Origin: an uncultured Gammaproteobacteria bacterium
GTDB taxonomy: Bacteria > Patescibacteriota > Patescibacteriia > UBA9570 > XYC2-FULL-38-9
Direction of reading: 5' to 3'
DNA length: 64,000 nucleotides
NCBI GenBank assembly: GCA_964344485.1
Contig: CAYFNF010000004.1
Coordinates: 66,069 to 130,068, forward strand
Positions 1-36,180 of the stretch are shown piece by piece (positions within the stretch are counted from its first letter, which is position 1; each line of letters begins with the position of its first letter). Made by a program: the position numbers and the translations under genes. Under the pieces are notes generated by a model. That model saw nothing but the letters and a program-made list of their open reading frames with translations, did not search any database and was not told the DNA's origin.

Positions 1-603
1 GGCCGTACGGTCATGATGCAGGTCGCGTTCCGCGGCACCATCGACCGCATGGTCGAGGTCGTACGCGACCCCGGGCAGGGGTGCGAGCTGCACACCGGCC
101 TGGTCGCCGAGGTCACGGAGCACACCTTCGAGCGCTGCGTCCTGGCCGAGCACGCCAGGCAGCTGATCATGCTGTGCGAACTGGGACCGGCCGACGTGGC
201 CAAGGGCCAGCTCGAGCGAACGGTCGCGCAGCTGATCGAGCGCGCCGCCTTGCTCACGCAGAGCATGAGCAACAGCGAGCTCGGCTGGATCGTGGGCTGC
301 GTGGACGGCATGCGGTACAACCGCCAGCTCCGGATGCACCCGGCGCGCATGCAGGAGCATCGCGGCACCGAACCCGACCACATCGCGCCCGACGACTACC
401 TGCGCGGTGAGCTCACCGGTCGGCAGGTGCTGATCCAGGTCGCGAACGTGGGACTGGCCTGCGAGGCCGTGAACATCCTGCGCGACAAGCGGCCATGCCC
501 CCGACACGGCAACGTCGAGAGCAACGCGCTGCGCGGACGCGGCAGACGCAGTGGACGTCGCAGGCGTGGCGGAAGCCGTCGCGGAGGGCGACTCAACCGG
601 TAG
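1..603 (+). CDS. Hypothetical protein of GC-rich island A. It has an Arg/Gly-rich C-terminal tail (RGRGRRSGRRRRGGSRRGG). It is possibly 5'-truncated by the window edge: the frame stays open back to nt 1 and the first ATG is at 13.
   Basis: ORF track 13..603. There is no in-frame stop upstream to position 1. Composition is visibly GC-rich, unlike the adjacent rbfA/infB. Confidence 0.4.
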   Translation, partial: GRTVMMQVAFRGTIDRMVEVVRDPGQGCELHTGLVAEVTEHTFERCVLAEHARQLIMLCELGPADVAKGQLERTVAQLIERAALLTQSMSNSELGWIVGCVDGMRYNRQLRMHPARMQEHRGTEPDHIAPDDYLRGELTGRQVLIQVANVGLACEAVNILRDKRPCPRHGNVESNALRGRGRRSGRRRRGGSRRGGRLNR

Positions 604-617
604 GGAGCCAATGACAC

Positions 618-649
618 GGCTCTGTTTTTTTATATTAAAAAACAGCCCT
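618..649. terminator. Inverted-repeat hairpin (GGCTCTG ... CAGCCC around the palindrome ctgtttttttatattaaaaaacag) between convergent genes. Candidate bidirectional terminator.
   Basis: Palindrome read directly at 622..645, with T-run and A-run on either side. Confidence 0.45.
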
Positions 650-3089: not shown

Positions 3090-4340
3090 CTACTTTTTCT
3101 TCTTCTTGGTTTTGAACTTGATCATCTTGCTCCACTCCCCGCACACTCCGTCTTCACATGCAGTCAGCTGTACTGCATATTTTTTTCCGCGTTCAAGATA
3201 CTTGCTTCCAAGACGTAACCCAGCTTTCTTCTTCACATTCTTAAAGATCTTGATCTTTTTAAACTTCTTGGTTTTTTTATTGTACTTCAACAGCTTCACA
3301 CGGTACTTCGTGCCCGCAGAATACTCCTTTACTGCTTTCTTGAACTTGATAATAACTGGCCACTTTTTCTTATTTACCTTCTTTACCTTCTTTTTCTTTA
3401 TCTTATCTAGTTGACCTGGACTTGTTTCCGCGGCAACTAGCGTGAAACTTTCTGAAGCGATAGTATCCACTCCTGGAGCAAGAGTAATGGATGTCATGAC
3501 AAAGAGCCAATCACCTGCAAAAGGATTCTTTACATTAGTTAATGTAAAAGGAATATCCGCACCAGGTTTGAGCTCTTGCCCAAGCGTAATTTTCCCTACA
3601 GCAGATGCGTCACCAACTGCTTCGAGTGTTGCAGTGAAATCTGCTACAAGCTCTGCTTCAGACAAGACAGCAGTTGACTCACCAGGAGCGATCTGTTGTC
3701 CTCCCCAGAAGAAGTAGATCTCTTCTCCAGAAGACAGCGTTGCGTTTTCTTTTACTTGAAATGTCACGTCGTACGTTGTTGCTGCTCCTGCAAGATCAGA
3801 CTCCGGCGCTGCAGTAACCGCAGAGATATTATTCACTTCTGCTGCTGGCTGACCGATAGTGAATTTAAATGGAGTAAACGCAGCATTGCCAAGACCTTGG
3901 GTGGTAATGACACAGTTATAATTTCCTTCAGTTGCTGGGTTTGTTATTCCGGAAAGGTCAAACTCGTGTGACCCAGCCCCAACACCAGTTGGAAAGCTAA
4001 TCTGAAAATTAGAATTTCCATTTGAAATGTCGGAATATACTGCATCCGGAGAGAGAGTTTTAAGCGTGAGCGTCGCAGAGGACAAGTCGAACGCTGTCGT
4101 TGCCTGGTGGTCGCTATCTAGCAAAGCAACTTGAATATTGCTGCCTGCTTTGAGTTTATTTTCTAAGGTTACAGCAAATGAATAGGTCGCTTCAACACTA
4201 GGCATAGGGTCGCTTAGCTCTAATGTGAAAGCGCTGATGTTTTCATCTGGCGCTGGTGGTCCTGCCAATACAGGACTCACGACCAGGAGCGCACAGCATC
4301 CAAGAATGGACGCGATGCACCAGTGACGAAGTTTCTTCAT
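3090..4340 (-). CDS. Secreted protein with an N-terminal signal peptide and an extremely Lys-rich, FN3-like C-terminal domain (roughly the last 110 aa).
   Basis: Signal peptide MKKLRHWCIASILGCCALLVVSPVLAG. The C-terminus (KKKKVKKVNKKKW ... GTKYRVKLL ... CGEWSKMIKFKTKKKKK) is paralogous to the C-terminus of 52264..53586. Confidence 0.6.
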   Translation of the reverse strand: MKKLRHWCIASILGCCALLVVSPVLAGPPAPDENISAFTLELSDPMPSVEATYSFAVTLENKLKAGSNIQVALLDSDHQATTAFDLSSATLTLKTLSPDAVYSDISNGNSNFQISFPTGVGAGSHEFDLSGITNPATEGNYNCVITTQGLGNAAFTPFKFTIGQPAAEVNNISAVTAAPESDLAGAATTYDVTFQVKENATLSSGEEIYFFWGGQQIAPGESTAVLSEAELVADFTATLEAVGDASAVGKITLGQELKPGADIPFTLTNVKNPFAGDWLFVMTSITLAPGVDTIASESFTLVAAETSPGQLDKIKKKKVKKVNKKKWPVIIKFKKAVKEYSAGTKYRVKLLKYNKKTKKFKKIKIFKNVKKKAGLRLGSKYLERGKKYAVQLTACEDGVCGEWSKMIKFKTKKKKK

Positions 4341-4447
4341 AGTTGTTTTTTATTATATATAAAATGACAATAGGCATTGTATCATTTTTTCTCTCTTTTT
4401 TCAAGACTAAAAAAAAGCGGCTCGCCGCCGCTCCCAGGAAAAAAATT

Positions 4448-5245
4448 CTATAACTCTTCAGGTTCTGTAGAATCAAGCAACTGACGATCTTTACCTACAA
4501 TAACTTTTTGCATTTCAGGACGGACCTCTACCTCACACGGCGTATTGAACTGCAGCACATTGTCAGCAGTGAGATGTACAGTATCTTCAGTAGTTGAAGA
4601 GATATGTATAGACTCTACAGGAAAGACGCTTTCAAGAGACTGTTTTGCACTGCGGCGCTTGAGCAAGCCAGAGGACACTGCAGGAGAGATCACCACATCT
4701 ATCTTGCCGTCAGTCACCCGTGAGAAACGCACTGACTCTCCGCCGAGAATATCTCCCCAGTTCAGGATTCGTAGTATTGTTGTCTCTTCTGTAGTTTGAA
4801 TGGAGTACTTGTCATCACAGCGCAGCTTCAATTTTGATGGTTCAGGCACAGACATGGAACCGAGAAAGTACGAATCATTGCAACAGCCTAAGTCGACAGT
4901 TTCGCACAAGCGCTTAGAAAGAACGTTGCATGCTTCCTCAGCTTCAGGAATGCCCAGCACTTCAGCAAAGCGCGAACCAGAGACCAGCGGAATGTACCCA
5001 AGAGTGACGTCATGCGTCGCTACAATATTCACCACAGAGGCAAAGGTAGTGTCGTCACCAACTGCAACAACCGTATGAGCTCCTTTCTTGATTGCATCTT
5101 CAATCAGCTCTTGGGCATTCTTAAACATCGAGAGCTTCTCCACTCGTCCGTTGATGCCAAGATCAATCAAGCGCGTCTCAATCTTTGTGAGTGTTGCTTC
5201 AAATTTCGGATCCTGCGTGAACTTATCGTAGAAATAAAAATACAT
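4448..5245 (-). CDS. Diacylglycerol/lipid kinase catalytic-domain protein (YegS/BmrU-like).
   Basis: N-terminal ...AIKKGAHTVVAVGDDTTFASVVN resembles the DAGK_cat GGDGT region. The family assignment is made from memory. Confidence 0.5.
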   Translation of the reverse strand: MYFYFYDKFTQDPKFEATLTKIETRLIDLGINGRVEKLSMFKNAQELIEDAIKKGAHTVVAVGDDTTFASVVNIVATHDVTLGYIPLVSGSRFAEVLGIPEAEEACNVLSKRLCETVDLGCCNDSYFLGSMSVPEPSKLKLRCDDKYSIQTTEETTILRILNWGDILGGESVRFSRVTDGKIDVVISPAVSSGLLKRRSAKQSLESVFPVESIHISSTTEDTVHLTADNVLQFNTPCEVEVRPEMQKVIVGKDRQLLDSTEPEEL

Positions 5246-5267
5246 GTGCCTCTACTTGAGTCGCTTT

Positions 5268-5696
5268 CTAATCGTCAGAGAGGTCGTCGGTGCTTGTGTT
5301 TTCTTCCCCCTCGGTTGATGTTGATGTTCCAGTAGAGCATCGTCCTTGGACTACTGCTCCGGTTTGTACAGAGATGATCTGTGTCTCGATGTCTCCGTGT
5401 ATGCGTGCAGAGCTCATGAGCTCGACAGTACCAGATGCATGAATGTTGCCTCGCACCTCTCCAGAGATGTGCATGTTTACAGCAGTCACGTCTGCTTCGA
5501 TTTTTGCATCTGTTCCTACGGTGAGGTCTTTTGAGGTTTTAATTGTGCCGACAACTTGTCCCTCAATTTGGATGTTGTCATCACTTTCGAACGTACCTTC
5601 GACTTTCACTGTTGGACCGATGATGGTCTCAGCATTCTGTACAGGTCCTCGGGGTGATACCTCTCCCCCTTCTTCTTTTGTAAACATTGGTGTCAT
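5268..5696 (-). CDS. Bactofilin-family cytoskeletal protein. The start is taken at the internal Met (MTPMFTKEE).
   Basis: Repetitive beta-solenoid segment IIGPTVKVEGTFESDDNIQIEGQVVGTIKT ... VRGNIHASGTVEL, with an acidic tail. Confidence 0.65.
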   Translation of the reverse strand: MTPMFTKEEGGEVSPRGPVQNAETIIGPTVKVEGTFESDDNIQIEGQVVGTIKTSKDLTVGTDAKIEADVTAVNMHISGEVRGNIHASGTVELMSSARIHGDIETQIISVQTGAVVQGRCSTGTSTSTEGEENTSTDDLSDD

Positions 5697-5880
5697 ACGT
5701 TGATAATACGTTATATAATAATGTATAGTGCAACGTCTAGAGTATCCAATGACCATGGCATTGTCAAAGGATAACTTGTGTACGGTGTATGAAGCGCTAC
5801 GGTTGTCAATTATATAAAAATACTATGTAATAGAAGAGCTGCGATAGAGCAGCAGAGAGAAAAATATAAAAAATTGATCT

Positions 5881-6051
5881 ATGACAGAACAACTAGCAAA
5901 AAATGTTCAGCTGCGGAAGGACCTTTTGATCATATTGGTTCTAGCGATTATTATGCTCGCAACGCTCGGAGTGCTGTGGTACTTAGATTCAACACAGCAG
6001 ATCATTACTACATGGTCTCATCAATTCTATCAGTTGTTATTACAGGTGTAA
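5881..6051 (+). CDS. Small single-TM membrane protein, 56 aa (MTEQLAKNVQLRKDLLIILVLAIIMLATLGVLWYL...). Not in the ORF track because it is under 60 aa.
   Basis: ATG at 5881, TAA at 6049..6051, hydrophobic core. A TTGTCA-17-TGTAAT promoter-like motif lies at about 5805..5833. Confidence 0.3.
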   Translation: MTEQLAKNVQLRKDLLIILVLAIIMLATLGVLWYLDSTQQIITTWSHQFYQLLLQV

Positions 6052-6092
6052 TATTTTACGACACATATTTTAGGCTAATATTAGCCTAATAT

Positions 6093-6167
6093 GCCCCTGT
6101 AGTTCAACGGATAGAACAAGACACTCCTAACGTCTAGATGGAGGTTCAATTCCTTCCAGGGGCACCA
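6093..6167 (+). tRNA. tRNA-Arg(CCT), with encoded CCA.
   Basis: Manual cloverleaf: acceptor GCCCCTG/CAGGGGC, anticodon loop CTCCTAA, T-loop TTCAATT, CCA at 6165..6167. Confidence 0.75.
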
Positions 6168-6303
6168 GAGATTTAAAATGGGCGAATTGCTTGCAGTTCG
6201 CTTCAAGCTCCTTCGCCATAGGCTTGCTATGGCTCAGTGCGCTTTTGCTCCACTGCTGCGCACTTCACTCCATTTTAGATCTCTGGAAAATCTGAGCACA
6301 CGA

Positions 6304-6377
6304 GGGCCATTAGCTCAGTTGGCTAGAGCGCTACATTCGCATTGTAGAGGTCGCCGGTTCAAATCCGGCATGGTCCA
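6304..6377 (+). tRNA. tRNA-Ala(CGC)
   Basis: Acceptor GGGCCAT/ATGGTCC with a G3:U70 pair, anticodon loop TTCGCAT, T-loop TTCAAAT. CCA is not encoded. Confidence 0.8.
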
Positions 6378-6390
6378 CTTCAACAACACC

Positions 6391-6984
6391 ATGATAAAGA
6401 ATCTTAAACAATTGAAGCCGCTCCCCTGGCACGAGGTGTTCTCTGTATGGAAACAGACAGAGGGCAGTGACCCATCTTGGCAGCAGACTGCAACCGACGT
6501 GAAAGGCTGGGATTCATGGGAACAGTGGCGGACGTATAAAACAGACAAGCTGGGATTCCCTGAACGTGAGTGGGCGCTGTATGAAATTGAACGACCAATG
6601 ACGACTGTACCAGCGTTCTTGGTCGGTCCTTTTAAAACTTGGCAGCAGCTGTTTGAGAAAAAGATGAAGCAGTCGTTCAAAGACATCGCAGAACATCATA
6701 CTGCTTGGGCAGAACAAAATAAGTCTATTACATATCTTCAAGCGCATTTCCCAGAGCAAACACAGATGATCGGTATGTACTATCCAAAGATGGATGCAGT
6801 CATTGTCTTTGAAGGACATCATCGCGCTGCAGCAATTGCGCTGTCTGTGCATCAAGAATCTATGATAGAATTCAGTAGTAATCCAATGATAGCGCTGACA
6901 ACCATAGACACAGCAGACTACGAGATGTTGAAAGAGCTAGCAACTCAATCATCAAAAAAAGAGGATGTTATTACGGGCGGTTAG
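6391..6984 (+). CDS. Hypothetical Trp-rich protein. The ORF-track start at 6178 runs through tRNA-Ala, so it is taken as an artifact and the start is called at the ATG at 6391.
   Basis: ORF 6178..6984. The stop TAG at 6982..6984 overlaps the 5' end of the tRNA-Val copy. Confidence 0.45.
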   Translation: MIKNLKQLKPLPWHEVFSVWKQTEGSDPSWQQTATDVKGWDSWEQWRTYKTDKLGFPEREWALYEIERPMTTVPAFLVGPFKTWQQLFEKKMKQSFKDIAEHHTAWAEQNKSITYLQAHFPEQTQMIGMYYPKMDAVIVFEGHHRAAAIALSVHQESMIEFSSNPMIALTTIDTADYEMLKELATQSSKKEDVITGG

Positions 6985-7138
6985 CTCAGTTGGTTAGAGC
7001 GCACGATTCACATTCGTGAGGTCACTGGTTCGGTCCGAGTATCGTCCACCCGAGAATTAAATAAATCATATGCAAGGTAAAGAGTTCCCAGGATCAGCAG
7101 CAGGAATGATTCTGCTTAATGGTACTAATGAGGTTTTT
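6929..7138 (+). repeat. Copy 1 of a roughly 210 bp direct repeat. It comprises the 3' end of the upstream gene, tRNA-Val(CAC), and the 5' start of the NUDIX gene.
   Basis: Read directly. It is near-identical to 8478..8683 except for a few substitutions and one small indel. Confidence 0.8.
6975..7048 (+). tRNA. tRNA-Val(CAC) copy 1, degenerate. T-loop TTCGGTC has lost A58, the T-stem has a mismatch, and the acceptor has two G-U pairs. Probable pseudo-tRNA.
   Basis: Aligned by eye to the intact copy at 8520..8593. Confidence 0.55.
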
Positions 7139-7156
7139 CTATACAACTGTCGCTAA
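7070..7156 (+). pseudogene. Truncated 5' fragment of the NUDIX hydrolase gene (MQGKEFPGSAAGMILLNGTNEVFLYNCR*), duplicated along with tRNA-Val.
   Basis: The first roughly 22 codons match the start of 8615..9043, then it diverges and hits a stop. Confidence 0.6.
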
Positions 7157-7185
7157 AATATACCGCTTTGAATTATAAATAGTTT

Positions 7186-8451
7186 ATGAAAGATGAAATC
7201 AAGCAAGATTATAAAATAGCAATCGACAAATACTTTTATGATTGTAAAAAAGAGATCTTGTCACAATTGAGATATGCAAAAAACAATGTCCCATATTACA
7301 AAGAGCTTCTTGCTCAAACTCGTATTGATGCCATTAAAACATATGATGATTTTTCAAAGGCGGTTCCTGTGCTAAATTCAGATACAGTTGCAGAGAAGCC
7401 ATTGGAAATGATTGGAGATGGTGCGCACATAGTATTTAAACGCACAAGTTCGTCCGCTTCTGGGAAGAGTAAGGAAATTTTTTTAACAAAGTCGGATATA
7501 GAGAGCTGGACGGAAAATGGAAGATTATCCATAACGCCGTATTTTAAAAGTGGAATGACTGTCACTCATTCATATAGAGAGGAAGAGTATTATTTATCAG
7601 GGCTTGATGACGCTGTGCTGTATTCGGCTGGCAAGATAACAACATTCAGAGCTGATGATATCAAAGATATTTATAGAAAAGTTACAAAAGCAGATATTTT
7701 GTTGGATTACTCTGAAATGATTTATTATATATCTGAACAAATAAAGAAGTATTCAGCTCAAAATGAATTGAACCAAGAGCGTAGTTTGGTTGTGTCCTAT
7801 ACAGGCGAATATTTAGATGACGAAGATATACAAAAAATTATAGATAATTTTGCGGAAGCAAATATTTCAGTGGAAGTATATAGCGAGTACTCTTTATCAG
7901 AGGTGGGGCCAGTTGCATGCAGTAGTAGCACAGAAAAAAATATTTTTAAACCAATTTATACCGAGGTTTGTTTTGTAGAAATTGTAAATGATGAAGGAAA
8001 GCCATCGAAAGATGGTGAAATTGTAATTACGGTGTTAAATAGAGAGGGCACGAATCTTATCAGATATACTTCAGGAGATTTAGGAGAAATAGTACTAAGA
8101 AATGGTGTGCCAAATATCTGGCTCAAGGGCAGAAAAGGGGGTATTAAAATTGCTAGTTTATTTATTCATCCACAACATATAGTATCAATTATTAGAAAAA
8201 AGGTTGGTGCAGATTTTTTCTGCTACATTGTTGCAGAAAAGCAGAAATATTTTTGTAAAATTGACATCAAGATTATCACACCAAGCAGGATTGATAATGT
8301 TGGCATAAAAGATTTTTTGCTAAAAGAATTAGGGTATATAGACGATATAAAGAAGACAATGGATATGGATGTTACAATAGAACAACGAAAGCTTACGAAT
8401 GTGGAGCTTCGCAAGGCTTTCTCATTTGTTGTAAATGGAGAATGGCTTTAA
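7186..8451 (+). CDS. PaaK/CapK/coenzyme-F390-synthetase-like adenylate-forming enzyme, located between the two repeat copies.
   Basis: 421 aa. TSSSASGKSKEIFLTKSD matches the (S/T)SG(T/S)TGxPK adenylation motif. RYTSGDLGE matches YRTGD. It is notably AT-rich. Confidence 0.5.
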   Translation: MKDEIKQDYKIAIDKYFYDCKKEILSQLRYAKNNVPYYKELLAQTRIDAIKTYDDFSKAVPVLNSDTVAEKPLEMIGDGAHIVFKRTSSSASGKSKEIFLTKSDIESWTENGRLSITPYFKSGMTVTHSYREEEYYLSGLDDAVLYSAGKITTFRADDIKDIYRKVTKADILLDYSEMIYYISEQIKKYSAQNELNQERSLVVSYTGEYLDDEDIQKIIDNFAEANISVEVYSEYSLSEVGPVACSSSTEKNIFKPIYTEVCFVEIVNDEGKPSKDGEIVITVLNREGTNLIRYTSGDLGEIVLRNGVPNIWLKGRKGGIKIASLFIHPQHIVSIIRKKVGADFFCYIVAEKQKYFCKIDIKIITPSRIDNVGIKDFLLKELGYIDDIKKTMDMDVTIEQRKLTNVELRKAFSFVVNGEWL

Positions 8452-8477
8452 AACCTAACTAATATAATAAGCATGAG

Positions 8478-8683
8478 TGAAAGAGCTAGCAACTCGATCA
8501 TTAAAAAAGATGTTATTACGGGCGGTTAGCTCAGTTGGTTAGAGCGTACGATTCACATTCGTGAGGTCACTGGTTCGATTCCAGTATCGCCCACCCGAGA
8601 ATTAAATCGAACATATGCAAGGTAAAGAGTTCCCAGGATCAGCAGCAGGCATGATTCTGCTTAATGATACTAATGAGATTTTT
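8478..8683 (+). repeat. Copy 2 of the roughly 210 bp direct repeat, with an intact tRNA-Val and an intact NUDIX start.
   Basis: Read directly. The upstream part retains the last codons (..KKDVITGG*) of the gene that ends at 6984. Confidence 0.8.
8520..8593 (+). tRNA. tRNA-Val(CAC), intact.
   Basis: Acceptor GGGCGGT/ATCGCCC, anticodon loop TTCACAT, T-arm ACTGG-TTCGATT-CCAGT. Confidence 0.85.
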
Positions 8684-9043
8684 TTAATGAGGCGTTCATC
8701 TAATACCAGGAATGACCATAATATGTGGAGTATTCCAGGAGGTCGTGTAGAGATGAATGAGAAAGTCGAGGACGCTGCAAAGCGCGAAACGCTAGAAGAA
8801 TGCGGTGTGACCGTTGAAGAGGTACAGCACCTTGGATTCGTGGATCATATATTGAATGAGTATAGTCAGCACTGGATTCCGCAGATTTTCCTAGCGACCA
8901 AATGGACAGGAGATCCCATGAACTGCGAAAAAGACAAGTGTGAAGAAGTAGGATGGTATGCACTGGATCATTTACCAGAGGATCGCTCTCAAGTGGTGAC
9001 AGATGCAGTGCAGTTGCTACAATGTTCCATAGAGAACAAGTAA
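8615..9043 (+). CDS. NUDIX hydrolase
   Basis: Nudix box GGRVEMNEKVEDAAKRETLEECGV. Confidence 0.8.
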   Translation: MQGKEFPGSAAGMILLNDTNEIFLMRRSSNTRNDHNMWSIPGGRVEMNEKVEDAAKRETLEECGVTVEEVQHLGFVDHILNEYSQHWIPQIFLATKWTGDPMNCEKDKCEEVGWYALDHLPEDRSQVVTDAVQLLQCSIENK

Positions 9044-9053
9044 GAATGTACAT

Positions 9054-9542
9054 ATGTCTGACCCAAGTTTTCAAGCGCTTGTTACTTCACTAGCAAAGAA
9101 GAAAAAGCGCGCTATATTAATTACTGGTATATCTTCCATTGTAGTTGGTGTTGCTGTTCTTTATATACGAAGCATTATTACTGTTGAAGGGGAATCGACT
9201 GGGTATTTACTACTAGGAATTGTTTTTTGTGTTATGGGAGTTCTTTCTTTCTTATCCTCGTTTCGCAGTGATCCGTTTGTGCATGCAGCATTAAAGGAGC
9301 CGAGTAAAATTGCATGGGCGTATACTGAGAAAGTAAGCGACGGCGAAGGAGGGCAAAAAAGGGACAAATTACGCGTTGTTATTCGCTATACAAATAAGAA
9401 AAAGTCGTATTTTGAGTTAAAAACCACTAAAGCTGAAGAGTTATACCAGGGGCTTCAAAAAAATGTTCCGCATGCGACATTTGGATATAGCAAGGAAATC
9501 AGGAAAAAGTATAAGCAAGACCCAAGCTCATTAATTCAATAA
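9054..9542 (+). CDS. Hypothetical membrane protein with two TM helices.
   Basis: 162 aa with hydrophobic segments IVVGVAVLYI / LLLGIVFCVMGVLSFL. Confidence 0.45.
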   Translation: MSDPSFQALVTSLAKKKKRAILITGISSIVVGVAVLYIRSIITVEGESTGYLLLGIVFCVMGVLSFLSSFRSDPFVHAALKEPSKIAWAYTEKVSDGEGGQKRDKLRVVIRYTNKKKSYFELKTTKAEELYQGLQKNVPHATFGYSKEIRKKYKQDPSSLIQ

Positions 9543-9556
9543 GGAGCACTGCGAAT

Positions 9557-9574
9557 AATGTTCCACGTGGAACA
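9557..9574. repeat. 18 bp perfect palindrome ATGTTCCACGTGGAACAT (copy 1).
   Basis: Read directly. An identical copy is at 10255..10272. Confidence 0.9.
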
Positions 9575-9679: not shown

Positions 9680-9994
9680 ATGACAGAACCAATACAAATG
9701 AAGCGAAAAGAGGCTCAAGATCTAAGAATAATGCGATTAGCACGAGTAATAGTAATGTTAATTGCTCTAGGAGCAGCAATGGGAGAGTATGCTGTTTCAC
9801 GCCCACCACGGAGACCGGATGAGGATCCGCATTCTGAGGTGGATAATGAAATGTCTAATATAGGATTTGAAAAAGTGTCCCAGGCTCAAGTGCAAGAGGA
9901 AGTTGATAAACTATCCCCTGGACTGAAGCAGCAATTATCCGTTGCCATTGATGCAATTAGTGCGGCAATAAGCCAATCTGAAGAACAGGTGTAG
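9680..9994 (+). CDS. Small protein with an N-terminal TM helix and an acidic C-terminus. Start is taken at the first Met after the tRNA.
   Basis: ORF track 9623..9994 overlaps the tRNA, so it is trimmed to the ATG at 9680 (MTEPIQMKRKEAQDLRIMRLARVIVMLIALGAAMG...). Confidence 0.4.
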   Translation: MTEPIQMKRKEAQDLRIMRLARVIVMLIALGAAMGEYAVSRPPRRPDEDPHSEVDNEMSNIGFEKVSQAQVQEEVDKLSPGLKQQLSVAIDAISAAISQSEEQV

Positions 9995-10196: not shown

Positions 10197-10223
10197 AAGC
10201 AATACTACAGTAGTTTATAGAAA

Positions 10224-10254
10224 ACACCCCTGCAAAGAACAGGGGTGTTTTAAT
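10224..10254. terminator. Intrinsic terminator hairpin CACCCCTG-caaagaa-CAGGGGTG followed by a T-run, with A-run and T-run on either side (bidirectional).
   Basis: Read directly. Confidence 0.6.
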
Positions 10255-10272
10255 TATGTTCCACGTGGAACA
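10255..10272. repeat. 18 bp perfect palindrome ATGTTCCACGTGGAACAT (copy 2).
   Basis: Read directly. Confidence 0.9.
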
Positions 10273-11067: not shown

Positions 11068-11199
11068 ACATTTTAAGGAAATACCATATATAAGTCAAAA
11101 AGCGCCGAAAGTTTTGACAACAATTTTTCTGCGCGGTATGTTCTTCTGTTCTTCTTGGTGTGGGAATCGCCGAGCAGAACATGCTTTGAGGAGGCAGAG

Positions 11200-11727
11200 A
11201 TGAAGCACTCGAAGTTGGCTCTGATCCTGGCAAGCCTGAGCCTGATGCTGGTGATCCCGAGCGTGTCGCGCGCGCAAGAGGAGAAGCCTGAGCCCGCGGT
11301 CAACCTGTTCACCGGAGCGTCCGTGGTCTTCGGTCTTCCGGACCAAGGAGCGCTCATGGGGTACGGATCTGTGGGCGTGGCCGTGCTGATCCCGGTGCGC
11401 GGACGCTTCGCGATCATCCCGGGCGGAGGGTTCGAAATAGCCCCAAAAATGGGCAATTTCGGGCCTTTCTGCAGCGTCGCGTTCGACTTCGCACTCAGCG
11501 ACGTGGTGGCTCTGGACCTGATCGTGGGGCTGGCGTATGACTACGATCCGGTCCTGGGACAGGAGATCGGCAAGCCGCACCAGGGCTACGTCATGGCCGG
11601 GCCAGGCCTCTCATTCCTGCTGCCCAATGGTATGAGCGTGGCGCCTGCGCTGCTCTACTCCGTGAACCTGCAGGGACTGGGGCACTTCCTGAGCCCTAGC
11701 GTGAGCGTGAACATCCCGCTGCCGTAG
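11200..11727 (+). CDS. Secreted Gly-rich beta-rich protein of GC-rich island B.
   Basis: Signal peptide MKHSKLALILASLSLMLVIPSVSRA. SD GAGGAGG lies 5 nt upstream of the ATG at 11200. Confidence 0.5.
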   Translation: MKHSKLALILASLSLMLVIPSVSRAQEEKPEPAVNLFTGASVVFGLPDQGALMGYGSVGVAVLIPVRGRFAIIPGGGFEIAPKMGNFGPFCSVAFDFALSDVVALDLIVGLAYDYDPVLGQEIGKPHQGYVMAGPGLSFLLPNGMSVAPALLYSVNLQGLGHFLSPSVSVNIPLP

Positions 11728-11803
11728 GGATACAACGCAAAAAACGCGATTTCAGGAGCACTCGGAATCACAAATGCCTGTGAATAACCGAGTTTTTTTA
11801 TGT

Positions 11804-20464: not shown

Positions 20465-21757
20465 ATGGCAAACCCATTTAAAGCAGCGCTGGAGCAATTG
20501 CATAAAGCAGCAGCGCTTATTGACGTAGATCCAGAAGTCATCGAGAGGCTGAGCAATCCTAGTCGTGAAACGCATGCATCTATTCCACTGCGCATGGATG
20601 ATGGAAAGTTGAAAGTGTTTAAAGGGTATCGCGTGCAGCATGACAACTCTCGTGGTCCGTTTAAAGGTGGAATTCGATTTCATCCAAAAACGAATATTAA
20701 TGAAGTGCGTGCACTTGCATTTTGGATGACCTTTAAGACCGCAGTGGTGGGAGTACCTCTAGGCGGGGGCAAAGGTGGTATTACTGTAGACCCAAAGAAA
20801 TTATCTGAACGAGAGCTAGAAGAGTTGACTCGCAAGTGGACTCGAGCAATGAGAGATGTGATTGGTCCGGACCGCGATATTCCAGCTCCAGACGTCTATA
20901 CCAACCCAAAGATTATGGGATGGATTGTTGATGAGTACTCAAAAGTTGCAGGAGCGTTCAGCCCAGGCGTAGTTACTGGAAAACCTCTCTCTATAGGCGG
21001 GTCTGTGGGAAGAAAGTCTGCAACAGCGCAAGGCGGCATCTATGTAACAGAGCAGTTACTAAAGAAGATCAACTTGAAGAAGCCAACTGTCATCATTCAG
21101 GGTTTTGGTAATGCGGGATCGATTTATGCTGAGCTGGCTGTGAAGAAAGGCTGGAAGGTGCTGGCTGTTTCTGATTCAAAAGGTGGTGTGATTAATCCAA
21201 ATGGATTGGACATTAAAGGGCTAGTTCGCCATAAGATGGTTACTGGAAGTGTAGTAGATTTCAAAGACAGCAAACCTATTGATAATGAAAAACTCTTATT
21301 ACAGAAGTGCGACCTATTAGTTCCTGCAGCATTAGAAGGAGTGATCACCAAGACCAATGCAGGCAGAATTAAAGCAAAGGCAGTTGTGGAGCTGGCAAAC
21401 GGCCCAACGCTTCCTGAAGCAGACGAGAAACTGTTTAAGAAAGGCATTATTGTTTTGCCAGACATTCTCGCAAATGCAGGCGGTGTGACGGTGTCGTACT
21501 TCGAATGGGTGCAGAATTTGTATCAATACTACTGGAACGAGAAAGAGATGGCCGAAAAACTAAAGCCAGTGATGATGGATGCATTTAATAATGTGTGGAG
21601 AGCGGCTGAGCGACACGAGACAGACATGAGAACAGCAGCGTACGTAGTAGCTCTTGCAACTATTGCAGAGGCTATGATCGACCGCGGGCGAGTGAAGCCA
21701 GTAAAAGGTCACTATATAGAAGAGACTAAGCAAGGAGAAGAGCCTTCCATCTACTAG
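20465..21757 (+). CDS. gdhA: Glutamate dehydrogenase (Glu/Leu/Phe/Val dehydrogenase family).
   Basis: VPLGGGKGGI and KGGIRFHP motifs. Confidence 0.85.
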   Translation: MANPFKAALEQLHKAAALIDVDPEVIERLSNPSRETHASIPLRMDDGKLKVFKGYRVQHDNSRGPFKGGIRFHPKTNINEVRALAFWMTFKTAVVGVPLGGGKGGITVDPKKLSERELEELTRKWTRAMRDVIGPDRDIPAPDVYTNPKIMGWIVDEYSKVAGAFSPGVVTGKPLSIGGSVGRKSATAQGGIYVTEQLLKKINLKKPTVIIQGFGNAGSIYAELAVKKGWKVLAVSDSKGGVINPNGLDIKGLVRHKMVTGSVVDFKDSKPIDNEKLLLQKCDLLVPAALEGVITKTNAGRIKAKAVVELANGPTLPEADEKLFKKGIIVLPDILANAGGVTVSYFEWVQNLYQYYWNEKEMAEKLKPVMMDAFNNVWRAAERHETDMRTAAYVVALATIAEAMIDRGRVKPVKGHYIEETKQGEEPSIY

Positions 21758-21889
21758 TTCGATATTCCAACGACAGTCGAAGAGCCCTGGACATCCCCAG
21801 GGCTCTTGACTTTGCATTAAGCTGTGTTAGGCTGCTCTTTACGCATCGTGCGCTGTGCTAGCAAGCGATGTACTTTCCGGAGGATTGAG

Positions 21890-22321
21890 ATGAGCGACAT
21901 GTTGGCAGGACTGGAGCGAGTGCTCGGCAGCAAGGCGAACGTAGTCAAGGTGATGTTCCTAGCGCTTCAGGGAGACCACGGCCCGGTCAAGGGCCTCCCG
22001 GGTGTCCCGGACGACAGCAACGGACTGACCTTCTTCCGTGCAGTACTGGGCGACGGCGACGAGCTGATCGAGTACCTGCGGCACGAGCCGGTCTACGAGC
22101 TGACCATGCACCTGGAGGTGGTGTTCGGCGATGACCATCAGGGGCTGATCGGGCTCCTGGCACGCATCTACCACGATGGAGACCAGCAGGCACTCCGTGA
22201 AGGCTGGGCCGGCGAGCAAGGGGTCGGAGAGCCCGACGAGCGTCTCCGAAACATCATCCGCGACGCCTGCACCGGAGCAGGGCTGGAGAGCCCGTGGGCA
22301 AGCGAGGGCGACGCCTCGTAA
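21890..22321 (+). CDS. Hypothetical acidic protein of GC-rich island C. Start is taken at MSDMLAGLERV.
   Basis: GGAGG SD 6 nt upstream of the ATG at 21890. High GC relative to the flanking genes. Confidence 0.45.
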   Translation: MSDMLAGLERVLGSKANVVKVMFLALQGDHGPVKGLPGVPDDSNGLTFFRAVLGDGDELIEYLRHEPVYELTMHLEVVFGDDHQGLIGLLARIYHDGDQQALREGWAGEQGVGEPDERLRNIIRDACTGAGLESPWASEGDAS

Positions 22322-22449
22322 CCACCGGCTGACCATTGTCAGTATATCTGTGTACAGGTTGTAAATCTGACATGAACACATCCACCCTGTTTTTTTATAT
22401 CGTTCTATAGTATGATCATAGAAAGATACATAAGTACTAATTCATTCTT

Positions 22450-27970: not shown

Positions 27971-29317
27971 ATGAAATATGTTCACGCATTTCGATGGATG
28001 GTCAGTCTTTCTGTCGTACTATTCTTTGGTGTTCAAGCAACTACTGCAGCAGAACTGCCAGCCGCGCCAACTATTATCTCACCAGCACAGCAGAGCGTTC
28101 ATAGCACTGCCCTGCCGGTGATCACTGGTGTTGCACCCGCAGACATGCGCATCGCAGTCTATATTAATAATCAATTTAATGGATATGCAGATACGGTCAG
28201 CGAGAGTCAGGGTGTACAGAGCTTCTCGTATACTCCGTTTCTCTCCTTGTCCCCGGGTACACACACCGTGATGGCACGCGCTGAAGATGTAGACAATTCG
28301 ATTCGCAGCAACAAGAGCAAGGCATATACATTTACTATTGAGACAGAACCGCCCGCACCTACGCTACTGGATTCTGTGGTTGACGCAGACTCTTCTTGGA
28401 GTCAGCCGTGGGTCACTGGCGTAGCGCCGAGCGGCACGACAGTCAATATGTATATTGACGGAGCGTTCAACGGCACTGCTACTGCTAGTAACCATGAGTC
28501 CGGAACCGGCAGCTTTGCGTATCAACCGTTTCTGGTGCTATCACCAGGTACGCATACCGTTACTGCTACGACTTTGGTAGAGCGCGTTGACGGAACAACG
28601 CGCATGAGCAAGCGGTCTCAAGCGTTTTCGCTAAAGATTGCTGCTCCAGTACAACGTTCAAATACCAGCACTGCTACAACAGCAGCTGTAAACGCGGATG
28701 AGCAAGTTGAGGTCGAGCAGCAAGAGGAGAAGCTATGGCCAGAACCAGCAGAAACAGAAGAGCCTGTTCAAGAGGAAGCGGAAGAGTCTGTAGACGAGAT
28801 TGTCGAGGAGGTCGCTGAAGAAGAAAAGCAGGGCGATTCTGAGCCAACTCCTGTGGAGGAAGCCCCAGAAGAGCACAGCGAACAAGTTGCTGAAAGCACA
28901 AGCCAAGAAAGTGAGGGAGTTGTCTCTCCGGATGGAAACGGTGTTGCAGAGCAGGAAGAAGACAAAGAAGTGGAAGGTGCTACCGGTGTCGAAGAAGACA
29001 CTGAAGAAGATACCGAAGCGTCGACAACGCGCAGGAAAACATTCGGCTGGATTCTCTTGATCGCCGCGTTAGCGATATTCCTGTATCAACTACGTCGACG
29101 AAAGAACGAAGAGAGTCAAGAGTCACCGGACGTCACTGTACTCTCGGATGAAGAAGCGCAGCAAGTAAAGAAAGACAACGAGCAACAGCTCGAATTTCAT
29201 GCACCGAAAGAGAATAAAAATATCGAAGTGATCAAAAAGGAGGAGAAATCTCAATCAACAGACAGTTCCGAGCAGTCGTCCTCGCAAGAGACGAACCAGG
29301 AGCCGAAGTCAGAATAA
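27971..29317 (+). CDS. Surface protein with a signal peptide, two Ig-like domains homologous to a domain of the giant protein, an E-rich acidic linker, a TM anchor and a charged tail.
   Basis: AGGAGG upstream of the ATG at 27971. Domain ..NGYADTVSESQGVQSFSYTPFLSLSPGTHTV.. resembles ..NGTFQAASDPSGTASFSYEPFLDLDLGEHSV.. in 12274..17247. Confidence 0.65.
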   Translation: MKYVHAFRWMVSLSVVLFFGVQATTAAELPAAPTIISPAQQSVHSTALPVITGVAPADMRIAVYINNQFNGYADTVSESQGVQSFSYTPFLSLSPGTHTVMARAEDVDNSIRSNKSKAYTFTIETEPPAPTLLDSVVDADSSWSQPWVTGVAPSGTTVNMYIDGAFNGTATASNHESGTGSFAYQPFLVLSPGTHTVTATTLVERVDGTTRMSKRSQAFSLKIAAPVQRSNTSTATTAAVNADEQVEVEQQEEKLWPEPAETEEPVQEEAEESVDEIVEEVAEEEKQGDSEPTPVEEAPEEHSEQVAESTSQESEGVVSPDGNGVAEQEEDKEVEGATGVEEDTEEDTEASTTRRKTFGWILLIAALAIFLYQLRRRKNEESQESPDVTVLSDEEAQQVKKDNEQQLEFHAPKENKNIEVIKKEEKSQSTDSSEQSSSQETNQEPKSE

Positions 29318-29350
29318 TATCACTCGAATAGAACACACATCACCACACAA

Positions 29351-29378
29351 ACCGCTCATTGTAGCGGTTTTGTGTTTG
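29351..29378 (+). terminator. Intrinsic terminator AACCGCT-cattgt-AGCGGTT followed by a T-run.
   Basis: Read directly. Confidence 0.55.
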
Positions 29379-29420
29379 CGTTCATACAGGATGCAGCACG
29401 AACGCAGGAGGGTATAAAAA

Positions 29421-29441
29421 AACTGCGTGTGTGGCGCAGTT
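29421..29441 (-). terminator. Hairpin AACTGCG-tgtgtgg-CGCAGTT preceded on the + strand by A7. On the - strand this gives a T-run, making it a terminator for the island D genes.
   Basis: Read directly. Confidence 0.5.
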
Positions 29442-29444
29442 GGC

Positions 29445-29852
29445 CTACTGGCCGTCGGGCTCGTCGCCGGACTCGGGTGCGGTGACGCGCTGCCTGGGGC
29501 GGTCGAAGCTGATGATCAGCACGGCCATGCTCCCGGGCAGCACCGTGATCTCGAGCGCGATGGTCTTGCCCACGACCTTGGTGTTGTCCTCGCGCGAGGA
29601 CACCAGCAGCTTACCGTTGACCTCGCACTCACCCATGACCGCGCGGACCGTCACCGCGAACGGCAAGGCATCGAACGCGTGCTCGCCCTCGTGGACGTGC
29701 ATGGTCAGGAACTCCCGACCCGTGGGCGTGGCGTCCTGCACCAGCGTAACCCTGCCGCCGACCTCGAGCGCACTCACCTGGTGGGTGTGCCCCCACTCAC
29801 CGCTGTCTTCCTTGGTGCGGTAGATCAGCGTGAGCCTCATGTCCATCGACAT
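29445..29852 (-). CDS. Hypothetical His-rich, possibly cupin-like protein of GC-rich island D. Start taken at MSMDMRLTL.
   Basis: GAGGAGGA SD upstream of the ATG at 29852. GHTHQ...E and HVHEGEH motifs. The cupin call is tentative. Confidence 0.4.
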   Translation of the reverse strand: MSMDMRLTLIYRTKEDSGEWGHTHQVSALEVGGRVTLVQDATPTGREFLTMHVHEGEHAFDALPFAVTVRAVMGECEVNGKLLVSSREDNTKVVGKTIALEITVLPGSMAVLIISFDRPRQRVTAPESGDEPDGQ

Positions 29853-29987
29853 GCAATCCTCCTCGACCTGCCTGCATCTTCGCAGACTGTCGTATTGTAT
29901 CCGAAGACAAACATGATTGTGTGTGTTTGTCAAGGCATTTTAAGTATAAAAAAAGCGCGGTCTGAAGGCTCCTCCTGCCTCAGTGCG

Positions 29988-30978
29988 CTAGTCCTCCAGG
30001 ATCCGCAGTACCTCGAAGTTCGGGTGCTTGGCCGCATGCGCGAAGAACGGGAGGCACTCGTACGTGAACTCCCCGTTGAACACGGTCTGGTAGTAGAGCC
30101 AGGAGTAGAGCGCGTGATCGAAGTCGTCATCGTCCAGCACTCGCTCGCACATCCCGGTGCCGGGCCGGTACTCCATCCCCCAGGCGTTCGCCGCATCGCA
30201 CGTCTGCATGTAGGTCTCACGCAGCAGGAACCACGTGAACTCGCAGACCGGCTGGTTCGACCCGTAGCGGTCCCAGCCCCGTGCCATGATCTCGGCCTCG
30301 GTGTGCGAAGCGTCACGCCAGGCGTGCAGCAGCAGGGTCTCGAACCAGAGGTCCAGCAGCGCGGCCGGCACGTCGTCCTGCTCCATGTACGTGAGCGACT
30401 CGATCTGGAAGAAGATCACCGGCGACTCGGTGTTGTCGTGCGAGATCGGCTGGAACTTGACCAGCCAGGGCCAGGACACGGGTGATCAGGTCCGTGTAAC
30501 CGCTCTCGGGTAGGTTGCGCACCAGGTAGAGCGCACGCTCCTCCAGCAGCGCGGTCTCGGTGCCCGGCAGCGGTAGGTCCTCGTTCCCGGGCAGGGTGAG
30601 TGCGGGCAGTGGCGGGAAGGTGGTGGGCTCTTCCATGACCGCGGGCAGGGTCGGCTCTTCCTCGAGCGGCCAGTCCAGCTCCATCTGCAGGTACGAGCGC
30701 AGCTCCTGGTCGCTGAGCACAGCCCAGGCCATGCCGTCGATGCGGAGCAGGTCGGAGAGCCAGAGCATGTCGGCCTGGTCCAGCTCCTGATTCGACGCGA
30801 CCTGCGTGTTGACCTCGTCGGATCCGATCCTGGGCGACGGGATGAAGGTATGCGAGGTCGGCGGCGTAGGCTCCAGGAAGCTCACGATCACCGCGGACCA
30901 GCACACCAGCAAGGCCAGCATCAGGACCAGTACGGCCACGAGATGGCCGATGCGGAACTTGGTGTTGGGAAAGGGCAT
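29988..30978 (-). pseudogene. Membrane-anchored protein of island D, read in two overlapping frames (30313..30978 and 29988..30479). An apparent frameshift lies near 30480..30510.
   Basis: The N-terminal frame (MPFPNTKFRIGHLVAVLVLMLALLVCW...) degenerates into an Arg/Ala-rich read after about ...YTDLITRVLALAG. The other frame there opens into a plausible protein sequence (..PVIFFQIESLTYMEQDD..). GGAGGAG SD upstream of the ATG at 30978. Confidence 0.4.
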
Positions 30979-34804: not shown

Positions 34805-36115
34805 ATGCAAGTTACAAAAAAAGACCTCCCAAAAAGCCAGGTCGAGCTTACGATCGAGCTTTCTGTTGAGGAAGTACAACCGTTCGTAGACAAGGCTGCA
34901 AAGCGTATTGCGAAGGATGTAGACATCAAGGGCTTCCGTAAAGGAAAGGTTCCATATGATGTACTCGCAAAGAACGTTGGAGAAGCCACGATCTATGAAG
35001 AGGCGTTCAATGACATCGTTGAAGATGTCTATCCAAAAGCTGTTGAGCAAGAAGACCTTCAAGTCGCCGGAAAAGCAAACATTGATCTGGAGAAGATCGC
35101 GCCAGGAAATCCAGTAGTCTTTAAAGCAACCGTTCCTTTGATGCCAAATGTGTCACTGGGCAATTACAAGAAAGTAAAAGTCAAGAAAGGTACAGCAAAG
35201 ATGGATGACGCAAAGTTTGAAAAAACACTGAAGGACATCCAAAAGATGCGTGCAAAAGAGAAGGTCGTAAACCGAGAAGCAAAAGAAGGTGACAAAGTAG
35301 TGCTAGACTTTGAAGTCAAAGTCGGCGGCGTAGTCATCGAGGGCGGATCCGCTCAGAAGCAGCCGCTGGTGATCGGCGAGAGTCAATTCATCCCAGGATT
35401 TGAAGAGGAGATCGTTGGATTGAAGAAAGACGATGAGAAAGACTTCGAGCTGCAATTTCCGGAAGAGTACAAGAAGGAGGTTGCTGGAAAGAAAGGAGCA
35501 TTCCACGTGAAAGTACATGACGTCTTTGAGATCGAGCTCCCAGAGCTAACAGACGAAATCGCAAAAGAGATGAGCTTCGAGAACCTAGACAAGATGAAAG
35601 AAGAGCTGCAAAAAAATATCATGCGCGAACTCGAGCAGAAAGAACAGGAGAAGTACGAGAAAGAAGTGATTGAAGCTATGATGAAAGAGGCAGAGATTGA
35701 TGATGTCCCAGAGCAGCTGATTGAGGATGAAGCAGAAAAGATGGTCCAAGAGTCTGAACATGAGATTTCTCAGCAAGGACTAAAGTTTGATGACTATCTC
35801 GAGCATCTCGGGAAGAAGCGCGATGAACTCAAAGAAGAGTTCAAGCAGAATGCAGAGAAACGAATTCAAGCAGCATTAGTCATGCGTGAGCTCGCTGTAG
35901 TTGAAGACATTAAGGTCGATACCGCTGAGATTGATAAAGAGCTAGAGGAAATGAAGAAGATGTATGATCAGTTGCCTGAGATGGCGGCACAATTCGACGC
36001 ACCACAGTATCGTGCGCATATAGAGAACACGATGATGCACAAGAAGACGTTTGAACGCATTGGGAGCTTCTCGGGCAAGGGCGACGCAGAAGACAAGGAC
36101 AAGAAAGCAGAATAA
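34805..36115 (+). CDS. tig: Trigger factor
   Basis: N-terminal MQVTKKDLPKSQVELTIELSVEE ... GFRKGKVP. Its start codon abuts the hppA stop. Confidence 0.85.
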   Translation: MQVTKKDLPKSQVELTIELSVEEVQPFVDKAAKRIAKDVDIKGFRKGKVPYDVLAKNVGEATIYEEAFNDIVEDVYPKAVEQEDLQVAGKANIDLEKIAPGNPVVFKATVPLMPNVSLGNYKKVKVKKGTAKMDDAKFEKTLKDIQKMRAKEKVVNREAKEGDKVVLDFEVKVGGVVIEGGSAQKQPLVIGESQFIPGFEEEIVGLKKDDEKDFELQFPEEYKKEVAGKKGAFHVKVHDVFEIELPELTDEIAKEMSFENLDKMKEELQKNIMRELEQKEQEKYEKEVIEAMMKEAEIDDVPEQLIEDEAEKMVQESEHEISQQGLKFDDYLEHLGKKRDELKEEFKQNAEKRIQAALVMRELAVVEDIKVDTAEIDKELEEMKKMYDQLPEMAAQFDAPQYRAHIENTMMHKKTFERIGSFSGKGDAEDKDKKAE

Positions 36116-36120
36116 ATAAA

Positions 36121-36150
36121 CAGCCGGCAACCCCGGCTGTTTTTTGATAA
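36121..36150. terminator. Intrinsic terminator CAGCCGG-caacc-CCGGCTG followed by TTTTTT.
   Basis: Read directly. Confidence 0.65.
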
Positions 36151-36180
36151 AAAAATCGAGCGCAGACTCCTCTACAACGC

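Follow-up and report, generated by a model that had tools for sequence, protein, structure and literature searches.

Organization of the Locus

The subject of this work is a gene for a predicted adenylate-forming enzyme (hereafter, the ligase) located between two long direct repeats, each with a copy of tRNA-Val(CAC), in a 64,000-nt stretch of contig CAYFNF010000004.1 (GenBank assembly GCA_964344485.1, positions 66,069 to 130,068 of the forward strand). This whole stretch is referred to as the window, and all positions are counted from its first letter unless another contig is named. The host is a bacterium of the Patescibacteria (candidate phyla radiation, CPR), with the nearest translation initiation factor IF-2 showing 48% identity.

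On the left side, the locus contains a host gene encoding a protein of 197 aa. The TAG stop codon of this gene is located inside the upstream tRNA-Val, with an overlap at 6975–6984, and its GC content at third codon positions (GC3) is 0.47, which is typical of the host. Homologs of the 197-aa protein with an identity of 37–48% were found in Patescibacteria such as Magasanikbacteria; searches in Pfam, NCBIfam and PADLOC gave no match, and the PDB search gave nothing meaningful. The upstream tRNA-Val is followed by a short 5′ fragment of a NUDIX hydrolase gene (the NUDIX stub), the ligase gene, the downstream tRNA-Val and the intact NUDIX gene (Table 1). The 1.34 kb between the repeat copies (7142–8477) contain one intact open reading frame (ORF) of note, that of the ligase.

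Table 1. Features of the ligase locus, related gene clusters on other contigs and GC-rich islands of the window
Feature	Position	Strand	Evidence and remarks
197-aa host gene	6391..6984	+	ORF; last 18 codons (6929–6984) form the 5′ part of the repeat
Upstream repeat copy	6929..7141	+	Repeat search, global alignment; 213 nt
Degraded tRNA-Val(CAC), upstream	6975..7050	+	ARAGORN; Rfam 50.0 bits
NUDIX stub	7070..7156	+	24 duplicated codons, 4 codons from the insert, TAA at 7154–7156
5′ end of the foreign insert: end of a donor AdoMet-decarboxylase-like gene (last codons with the stop), short spacer	7143..7185	+	blastn, alignment with contig L001
Intact gene of the predicted 421-aa PaaK-like adenylate-forming enzyme (ligase), cargo	7186..8451	+	ORF; GC 0.34, GC3 0.29
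3′ end of the insert to the right junction	8452..8477	+	L001 similarity ends within the last ORF codons
Downstream repeat copy	8478..8686	+	Repeat search, global alignment; 209 nt
Intact tRNA-Val(CAC), downstream	8520..8595	+	ARAGORN; Rfam 67.6 bits, every stem paired
Intact NUDIX hydrolase gene, 142 aa	8615..9043	+	Pfam NUDIX E 7e-24; start 19 nt past the tRNA
Ligase/radical SAM/AdoMet_dc-like cluster	L003 3382–6378; L004; L005; L006 481–3200		
GC-rich islands of the window	1–620, 11100–11750, 21700–22400, 29200–30900, 36000–36800, 42500–43200, 43600–44000, 48400–50300, 60000–60500		

The Direct Repeat

According to the global alignment (213 columns), the two repeat copies are separated by 14 substitutions and a single indel of 4 nt, which corresponds to 93% identity over the aligned bases. 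The indel is the sequence AGAG (6960–6963), present in the upstream copy. The repeat search returned the pair as two blocks, namely, 6958–7141 versus 8503–8686 (184 nt, 92%) and 6929–6959 versus 8478–8508 (31 nt, 94%), and the offset between the blocks is set by this indel. No other long repeat, low-complexity sequences aside, is present within the window.

The order of elements is the same in each copy: the last 18 codons of the 197-aa ORF, tRNA-Val(CAC), a 19-nt spacer and the first 24 codons of the NUDIX gene. The repeat spans the whole tRNA with 46 nt upstream and 91 nt downstream of it and ends within the NUDIX coding sequence. The left copy runs on from the intact 197-aa gene, the right copy runs on into the intact NUDIX gene, and the insert is located exactly between them.

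The direct repeat and the insertion are confirmed as real features of this DNA. An ENA contig from a separate assembly (L091; ERZ930068 k127_76426, 5,446 bp) is 100% identical to the window at 4186–9355. The identity covers 5,170 bp including both junctions; thus, both were found in two assemblies, which argues against a bin-specific misassembly.

The original prediction, made from the letters and a list of ORFs, stated that about 210 bp recur 1.55 kb downstream with a few substitutions and a small indel, and that this segment comprises the end of the 197-aa gene, tRNA-Val(CAC) and the beginning of the NUDIX gene. Alignment bore this out, the repeats being neither much shorter nor less similar than stated. 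The same is true of the truncation of the upstream NUDIX copy after 28 codons, of the intact state of the downstream tRNA and NUDIX gene, and of the AT-rich stretch with a single adenylating enzyme gene between the copies.

Degradation of the Redundant Copies

The two tRNA-Val copies differ at five positions, and four of the differences are harmful to the upstream copy: G58 in place of A58, C60 in place of U60, a G52/G62 mismatch, and G3:U70 in place of G3:C70. The remaining one improves it (C27:G43 in place of U27:G43). The T loop of the upstream copy has the sequence UUCGGUC with G at position 58, and cmscan flags one non-canonical pair in the T stem. Its Rfam score is the lowest among the nine tRNAs of the window; its minimum-free-energy fold is not a cloverleaf and lacks the T arm, and the canonical combination of a paired T stem with T54 and A58 is absent. 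Judging by these features, the upstream tRNA-Val is probably a pseudogene. It had been predicted to be degenerate on the basis of a T loop without A58 and mismatches in the T and acceptor stems; the first two were found, whereas the acceptor defect is a G3:U70 wobble pair and not a mismatch.

The C70-to-T change in the upstream tRNA-Val places G3:U70 beside A73 and G2:C71. These three elements together are the recognition set of alanyl-tRNA synthetase, here on an anticodon that reads GUG, and such an RNA would mistranslate if it were functional. With the T arm damaged, this identity set is probably irrelevant.

As for the NUDIX segment, its four differences were polarized using the orthologous genes of contigs L105 and L109 as outgroups. 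Three of them arose in the upstream copy, which is dead (GAT to GGT, ATT to GTT, and TTA to CTA), and two of these three are nonsynonymous. The fourth, GGA to GGC, arose in the live copy and leaves the amino acid unchanged. In addition, the first 42 nt of the downstream repeat copy correspond to the 197-aa gene 3′ end and persist there as a frame-shifted relic. The polarized NUDIX changes and the damage to the upstream tRNA fit a scheme in which the copies were identical at first and the redundant ones then drifted.

Composition and Boundaries of the Insert

The stretch between the repeat copies has a GC content of 0.31–0.38 versus 0.42–0.49 in its flanks, and the lowest-GC kilobase of the entire window is 7001–8000. 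The GC3 of the ligase gene was compared with that of seven other genes of the window, where it is 0.32–0.47 (0.41–0.47 in five of them). Homologs of the ligase with an identity of 43–45% are located on contigs with a GC content of 30–32% (L003–L006), and the closest homolog (75% identity, contig L001) is located in an AT-rich patch (0.27–0.36) within a background of 0.40–0.46. By its composition, the insert is foreign DNA.

The boundaries of the insert were assessed using contig L001, the nearest ligase locus. According to blastn, window 7143–8429 aligns with L001 9956–11247 at 80% nucleotide identity, and the homology begins at 7143, directly after the end of the repeat. In L001, the ligase gene is preceded by a 45-codon ORF (9854–9991) that matches the C-terminal part of the AdoMet_dc-like proteins encoded by L003 and L006 (E 1e-4 and 4e-3, respectively). 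Since only the C-terminal part is matched, this ORF is a truncated gene. Residues 32–44 of the 45-aa fragment match 13 codons of the window at 7134–7172 with 85% identity. The presence of the last 13 codons of an AdoMet_dc-like gene at the left end indicates that the insert was probably taken at random from a more extensive donor region, with its left end falling within a gene.

The left junction is located in a T-run inside the NUDIX coding sequence, and a T-run is also present in the donor-like L001. The sequences to be compared are GAGATTTTTTTAATG in the intact NUDIX gene, AAGATTTTTTTGGGAC in the donor-like L001 (in a longer form, AAGATTTTTTTGGGACAACTGT) and GAGGTTTTTCTATACAACTGT at the window junction. 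The stretch AGATTTTTTT is common to the intact NUDIX gene and the donor-like L001 exactly at the join, as seen at the left junction through a donor proxy of 80% identity.

No convincing terminal inverted repeats of the insert were found, the best pair near its ends being 15 nt at 80% identity. No transposase was detected in the insert ORFs or in nine neighboring proteins analyzed with Pfam, nor did these proteins or the insert contain a recombinase domain, in agreement with the predicted lack of a recombinase in sight.

Properties of the Ligase

The 421-aa ligase shows no Pfam match. The NCBIfam models matched were the DVU_1553-family AMP-dependent CoA ligase (E 9e-20), FlxY (2e-15) and PaaK models (1e-11; TIGR02155 7e-9), all with scores far under the curated cut-offs (71 vs. 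300 bits and 35 vs. 646 bits). The scores against the PaaK equivalog models TIGR02155 and NF041878 were 34.7 and 44.1 bits, below the required 646 and 700 bits, respectively. There were no paa genes among the window ORFs and Pfam-tested neighbors of the ligase. With the single sequence as a query, the PaaK crystal structure 4r1l was matched with E 2.7e-8. The subfamily profile matched the PaaK structures 4r1l, 9s3l, 2y4o and 2y27 in both the N- and C-terminal parts (E 1e-15 to 1e-10), the best being 4r1l (E 1.2e-15, profile positions 12–109 and 222–394).

In an alignment of six sequences, two distant PaaK-like proteins included, the invariant residues are S90 and G93 of the Ser/Gly-rich P-loop, Y235 and E239 of the Y..E motif, and R293, Y294, G297 and D298 of the RY..GD motif. 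Judging by sequence and structure matches, the ligase is a member of the PaaK-like clade of the ANL superfamily and not PaaK itself; it is predicted to be an ATP-dependent carboxylate-adenylating enzyme. These NCBIfam matches, PaaK-structure matches and motif residues agree with the family assignment made in the original prediction.

The subfamily is very rare. A word-indexed search of 5.8 billion proteins gave three close non-self matches (75%, 45% and 43% identity), and 7 of the 1.84 billion representatives covered by a full profile hidden Markov model (HMM) search reached E ≤ 1e-30. A score gap follows in the HMM search, and the next full-length matches (~1e-20) are found among ordinary PaaK-like proteins. 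A metagenome scan with the ligase alignment returned nothing beyond PaaK-like proteins of 24–36% identity, a viral contig scan with the ligase alignment and profile returned no viral contig, and PADLOC gave no defense-system match for the ligase. The AlphaFold model built from the six-sequence alignment (mean pLDDT 61, pTM 0.39) was too poor for a fold search.

The ligase gene and its L001 homolog have a ratio of nonsynonymous to synonymous substitution rates (dN/dS) of 0.14, with dS of ~0.95. When random neutral substitution was simulated at 3%, 5% and 6.6%, the ORF stayed open in ~11%, 3% and 1% of trials, respectively. From these estimates, the ligase is most likely a functional gene maintained under selection.

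Comparison with Relatives

The 197-aa protein as a query against the genome collection gave no relative, and IF-2 gave distant Patescibacteria only (≤48% identity, of no use for synteny). A search with the NUDIX protein gave orthologs. These are 55–65% identical and are encoded on contigs syntenic with the window (L105–L111). The gene order in L105–L108 is DAGK (minus strand), bactofilin (minus strand), a small membrane ORF, tRNA-Arg(CCT), NUDIX, a small ORF and TrmB (minus strand); in L109–L111, it is bactofilin (minus strand), a small ORF, tRNA-Arg(CCT), dCTP deaminase and NUDIX. The interval from tRNA-Arg to NUDIX is thus variable in this lineage.

The tblastx analysis confirmed the orthology of DAGK, bactofilin, tRNA-Arg and NUDIX, and found no match to window 6391–6984 or 7142–8477 in the syntenic relatives. 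The ligase is absent from the locus in all of them (L105–L111), as an insertion implies and as had been proposed for comparison with related genomes; an arrangement with the ligase between tRNA-Val and NUDIX in all relatives was not found. The ligase was also absent from all five contexts of the 197-aa homologs, in which the downstream synteny is not conserved. From the repeat itself it is evident that the 197-aa gene was directly followed by tRNA-Val and NUDIX until the insertion took place.

A remnant resembling tRNA-Ala was noted in L105 at 3446–3510, in the syntenic position after tRNA-Arg(CCT). It lacks the anticodon arm (a 17-nt gap relative to the tRNA-Ala(CGC) of the window, 6304–6378), and its acceptor and T-arm sequences are recognizable; neither ARAGORN nor the Rfam tRNA model detected it. 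Hence, a tRNA has decayed at this locus in a relative as well. Automatic gene calls cross tRNAs in both genomes: a 268-aa product is called over tRNA-Ala in the window contig (6178–6984), and the NUDIX product called in L105 (168 aa, 3446–3952) includes the tRNA-like remnant. The true starts are most likely 6391 in the window and 3537 in L105.

Origin of the Arrangement

Taken together, the data make it probable that the locus arose by a one-step, microhomology-mediated illegitimate insertion of a foreign fragment with a target duplication of ~210 bp, followed by decay of the redundant copies. In the proposed scheme, the host operon had the order tRNA-Arg, tRNA-Ala, 197-aa gene, tRNA-Val, NUDIX and onward. 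A promoterless, AT-rich foreign piece of 1.34 kb, carrying the complete PaaK-like ligase gene with ~43 nt of the preceding donor gene, would have been joined into this operon by illegitimate recombination guided by microhomology, and ~210 bp of the target would have been copied to both sides of the insert in a single event. We infer two possible routes. Two sister chromosomes broken ~210 bp apart may have been joined via the foreign fragment as a filler, or a replication fork may have switched its template to foreign DNA and then back, ~210 bp behind.

Owing to the target duplication, the host genes all survived: the 3′ end of the 197-aa gene is still in place, and NUDIX retains its tRNA-Val and its start. 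The ligase would then be transcribed through read-through of the operon. No terminator-like or strong promoter-like site bracketing the ligase was seen, which makes read-through the simplest assumption; the first plus-strand terminator-like site after the series of tRNAs and genes is at 10221–10251. Subsequently, three redundant pieces would have drifted (on the upstream side, tRNA-Val and the NUDIX stub; on the downstream side, what is left of the 197-aa gene 3′ end), and the ligase ORF stayed intact, most likely by selection.

Several points weigh against this explanation. No genome was found with an exact empty site, in which tRNA-Val would stand between the 197-aa gene and NUDIX and the ligase would be missing; the syntenic relatives are remote, and neither the 197-aa gene nor tRNA-Val is present in them. 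The microhomology was read from L001, a proxy of 80% identity, and T-runs are common in AT-rich DNA; the right junction has no donor counterpart, as L001 diverges within the last ORF codons. The outgroup polarization is based on four sites, and the copies could already have differed by their 7% at the time of integration, provided that a diverged version of the segment arrived with the foreign DNA. Finally, most of the divergence behind the dN/dS value may have accrued in other genomes before the insertion.

An alternative is a Campbell-type homologous integration, in which a circle carrying the ligase and one diverged 210-bp copy (e.g., excised from a related strain with this structure) recombined with the resident segment to give two chimeric copies. 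The geometry of the product is exactly that of a single crossover, the 7% divergence could reflect that between donor and recipient, and both amino acid changes in the NUDIX stub are mild (G for D and V for I). Such an event would explain the spread of the structure and not its origin, the first event still requiring an illegitimate junction, of which the donor-gene remnant and the T-run are signs. Moreover, a functional donor tRNA-Val would not have G58, the T-stem mismatch and G3:U70, and the outgroups place three of the four NUDIX-stub changes on the dead copy. We consider this origin unlikely, though deserving of some weight.

The remnant of a site-specific integrative element (a genomic island or prophage with a tyrosine or serine recombinase) that inserted at tRNA-Val and lost everything except the ligase appears quite improbable. 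The insert does adjoin a tRNA gene and is flanked by tRNA-containing direct repeats, and the 75% identical ligase of L001 is also located ~290 nt downstream of a tRNA (tRNA-Phe). However, no recombinase was found in the insert or the nine neighbors; the repeat holds the complete tRNA and 46 nt upstream of it and not just the tRNA 3′ part; a donor gene is interrupted at the left end of the insert, and the host side of that junction is NUDIX coding sequence. No tRNA repeat flanks the ligase in L001, the ligase loci of L003, L004, L006, L099 and L100 have no adjacent tRNA, and the ligase profile found no viral contig. Recurrence of an attachment site at an orthologous tRNA was not observed, the contexts of the other ligase loci being different. 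The original prediction had allowed for either integration at a tRNA gene or a duplication-mediated insertion; the latter is favored here as an illegitimate event, and the extent of the repeat, the junction in the NUDIX T-run and the donor-gene remnant speak against the former.

A concatenation of contigs of two strains across a shared tRNA-Val region, i.e. an assembly artefact, is very improbable. It may be suspected from the metagenomic source and the many compositional islands in the window, but the copies differ at 14 positions and by an indel and are not a collapsed repeat, the contig of the second assembly is identical across both junctions, and the border ORFs all behave as in a real event. 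The least probable origin, hardly worth retaining, is an ancestral arrangement in which the position of the ligase between tRNA-Val and NUDIX is original and the sole change was a local duplication of 210 bp: the missing exact empty site would agree with it, yet the ligase GC3 is under that of all seven host genes measured, the gene is absent in the syntenic relatives, its subfamily is extremely rare, patchy and in a different context in every genome, and a donor-gene remnant is located at the left end of the insert.

Two other schemes were set aside. A transposon or insertion sequence does not fit the lack of convincing terminal inverted repeats and of a transposase, or a duplication of ~210 bp rather than 2–15 bp. 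A two-step model with a tandem duplication and a later insertion at the joint is less parsimonious, as the insert must hit the joint exactly.

Ligase Loci in Other Genomes and Possible Function

In contigs L003, L004, L005 and L006, which have a GC content of 30–32%, a radical SAM gene and an AdoMet_dc-like gene come after the ligase gene; a 70-aa ORF precedes the ligase in L003–L005. This cluster constitutes a conserved, uncharacterized gene set. The radical SAM proteins of L003 and L006 match the RaSEA model TIGR01210 over nearly the full length (E 5e-54 and 2.5e-54, respectively), with scores of 184–185 bits that are under the curated cut-off of 212. For the third protein of the cluster, the Pfam match is AdoMet_dc (E 3e-18). 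A tblastn search of the window for these two companion genes detected the 13-codon AdoMet_dc-like remnant at 7134–7172 and nothing of the radical SAM gene.

The ligase is solitary in the window and in L001, L099 and L100. In L099, it is located beside a class I aminoacyl-tRNA synthetase gene and a fragment of a DDE transposase. This DDE_Tnp_1 fragment (L099 1–249) is directly upstream of the ligase gene and provides a further hint of the gene being spread with mobile or rearranged DNA.

In archaea, RaSEA, complexed with ArcS, is described as converting preQ0-lysine in tRNA to archaeosine (PMC11298593). Compared with the ArcS–RaSEA pathway as outlined there, the radical SAM proteins of L003 and L006 are alike in matching TIGR01210 nearly full length, and the cluster differs in that the partners are a PaaK-like ligase and an AdoMet_dc-like protein and not ArcS. 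By analogy, a role of the ligase in nucleoside or tRNA chemistry could be proposed as a lead rather than a finding. A tRNA or aminoacyl-tRNA synthetase gene is located within ~2 kb of the ligase in four of its six distinct contexts (the window, L001, L003 and L099, as opposed to L006 and L100). A more specific version, which we regard as a speculation with a low chance of being correct, is a previously undescribed three-gene system of Patescibacteria (PaaK-like ligase, RaSEA-like radical SAM protein and AdoMet_dc-like protein, sometimes with the 70-aa ORF) that would build or modify a nucleoside or tRNA base, the orphan ligase of the window being selected for a translation-related substrate; this would also account for the proximity to tRNA and synthetase genes. 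The upstream tRNA as a dedicated substrate of the ligase was set aside, since other ligase loci have no adjacent tRNA.

Other Features of the Window

A palindrome, (T)GTTCCACGTGGAAC(A), is perfect at 9559–9574 and 10257–10272 and degenerate at 9021–9038, and within the window it is found at this locus only. In the relatives, it occurs 1–5 times per contig within ~1.5 kb in L105–L111 (e.g., L105 4289 and 4758; L109 5373, 5585, 5978, 6440 and 6831), flanking the dCTP deaminase gene, NUDIX and small ORFs, and once inside the deaminase gene. It was absent from the other 104 loci examined. Possible roles of this palindrome are that of an operator bound by a local regulator and that of a recombination site in the variable locus.

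The window also contains at least eight short GC-rich islands with a GC content of 0.60–0.66 versus a background of ~0.44, which are not repeats of each other. For the island ORFs, Pfam gave two weak matches, to TPR (43437–44057) and to a class III cyclase (48435–50237), and nothing else. The islands may be either single-gene insertions from high-GC donors or foreign or chimeric pieces of the contig.

Significance and Comparison with Known Systems

The locus would provide a natural example of how a small CPR genome gains a single foreign gene without mobile-element machinery and with a compact operon of tRNA and protein genes left undamaged. The target duplication spares both neighboring genes, making the event survivable in a compact operon, and it leaves datable debris in the form of a pseudo-tRNA and two gene stubs. 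The event would be a clear case of a known kind, namely, horizontal gene transfer by illegitimate recombination, and the insertion does not overturn current understanding. The enzyme subfamily is new and rare within a known family, and its association with a RaSEA-like radical SAM protein makes it a candidate for biochemical study.

As regards the enzyme, the ligase resembles PaaK and small ANL enzymes (DVU_1553-family CoA ligase, FlxY and 2-hydroxyisobutyryl-CoA synthetase) in its length of ~420 aa and its two-domain layout. It differs from PaaK by its sub-cut-off scores, the lack of a Pfam match and the score gap separating it from other PaaK-like proteins. In addition, its subfamily is found in two lineages beside RaSEA-like radical SAM and AdoMet_dc-like genes and not beside paa genes.

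As for the arrangement, it is similar to genomic islands at tRNA genes in its deviating composition, the neighboring tRNA, the tRNA-containing direct repeats and the leftover redundant tRNA. In elements that target tRNA genes, the attachment-site repeats cover no more than the 3′ part of the tRNA and, in some cases, a little of the sequence that follows it. In contrast to genomic islands, the locus described here has no integrase, a single-gene insert of 1.3 kb, a repeat of ~210 bp over the entire tRNA and parts of its neighbors, and junctions in coding sequence. It also resembles illegitimate (microhomology-mediated) or template-switch insertions, with which it shares the lack of element machinery and a duplicated flanking target and appears to share an arbitrary donor fragment and a short common run at the junction. 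Illegitimate integration in natural transformation is usually described with a deletion of recipient DNA, whereas the present locus has a 210-bp duplication and one readable junction.

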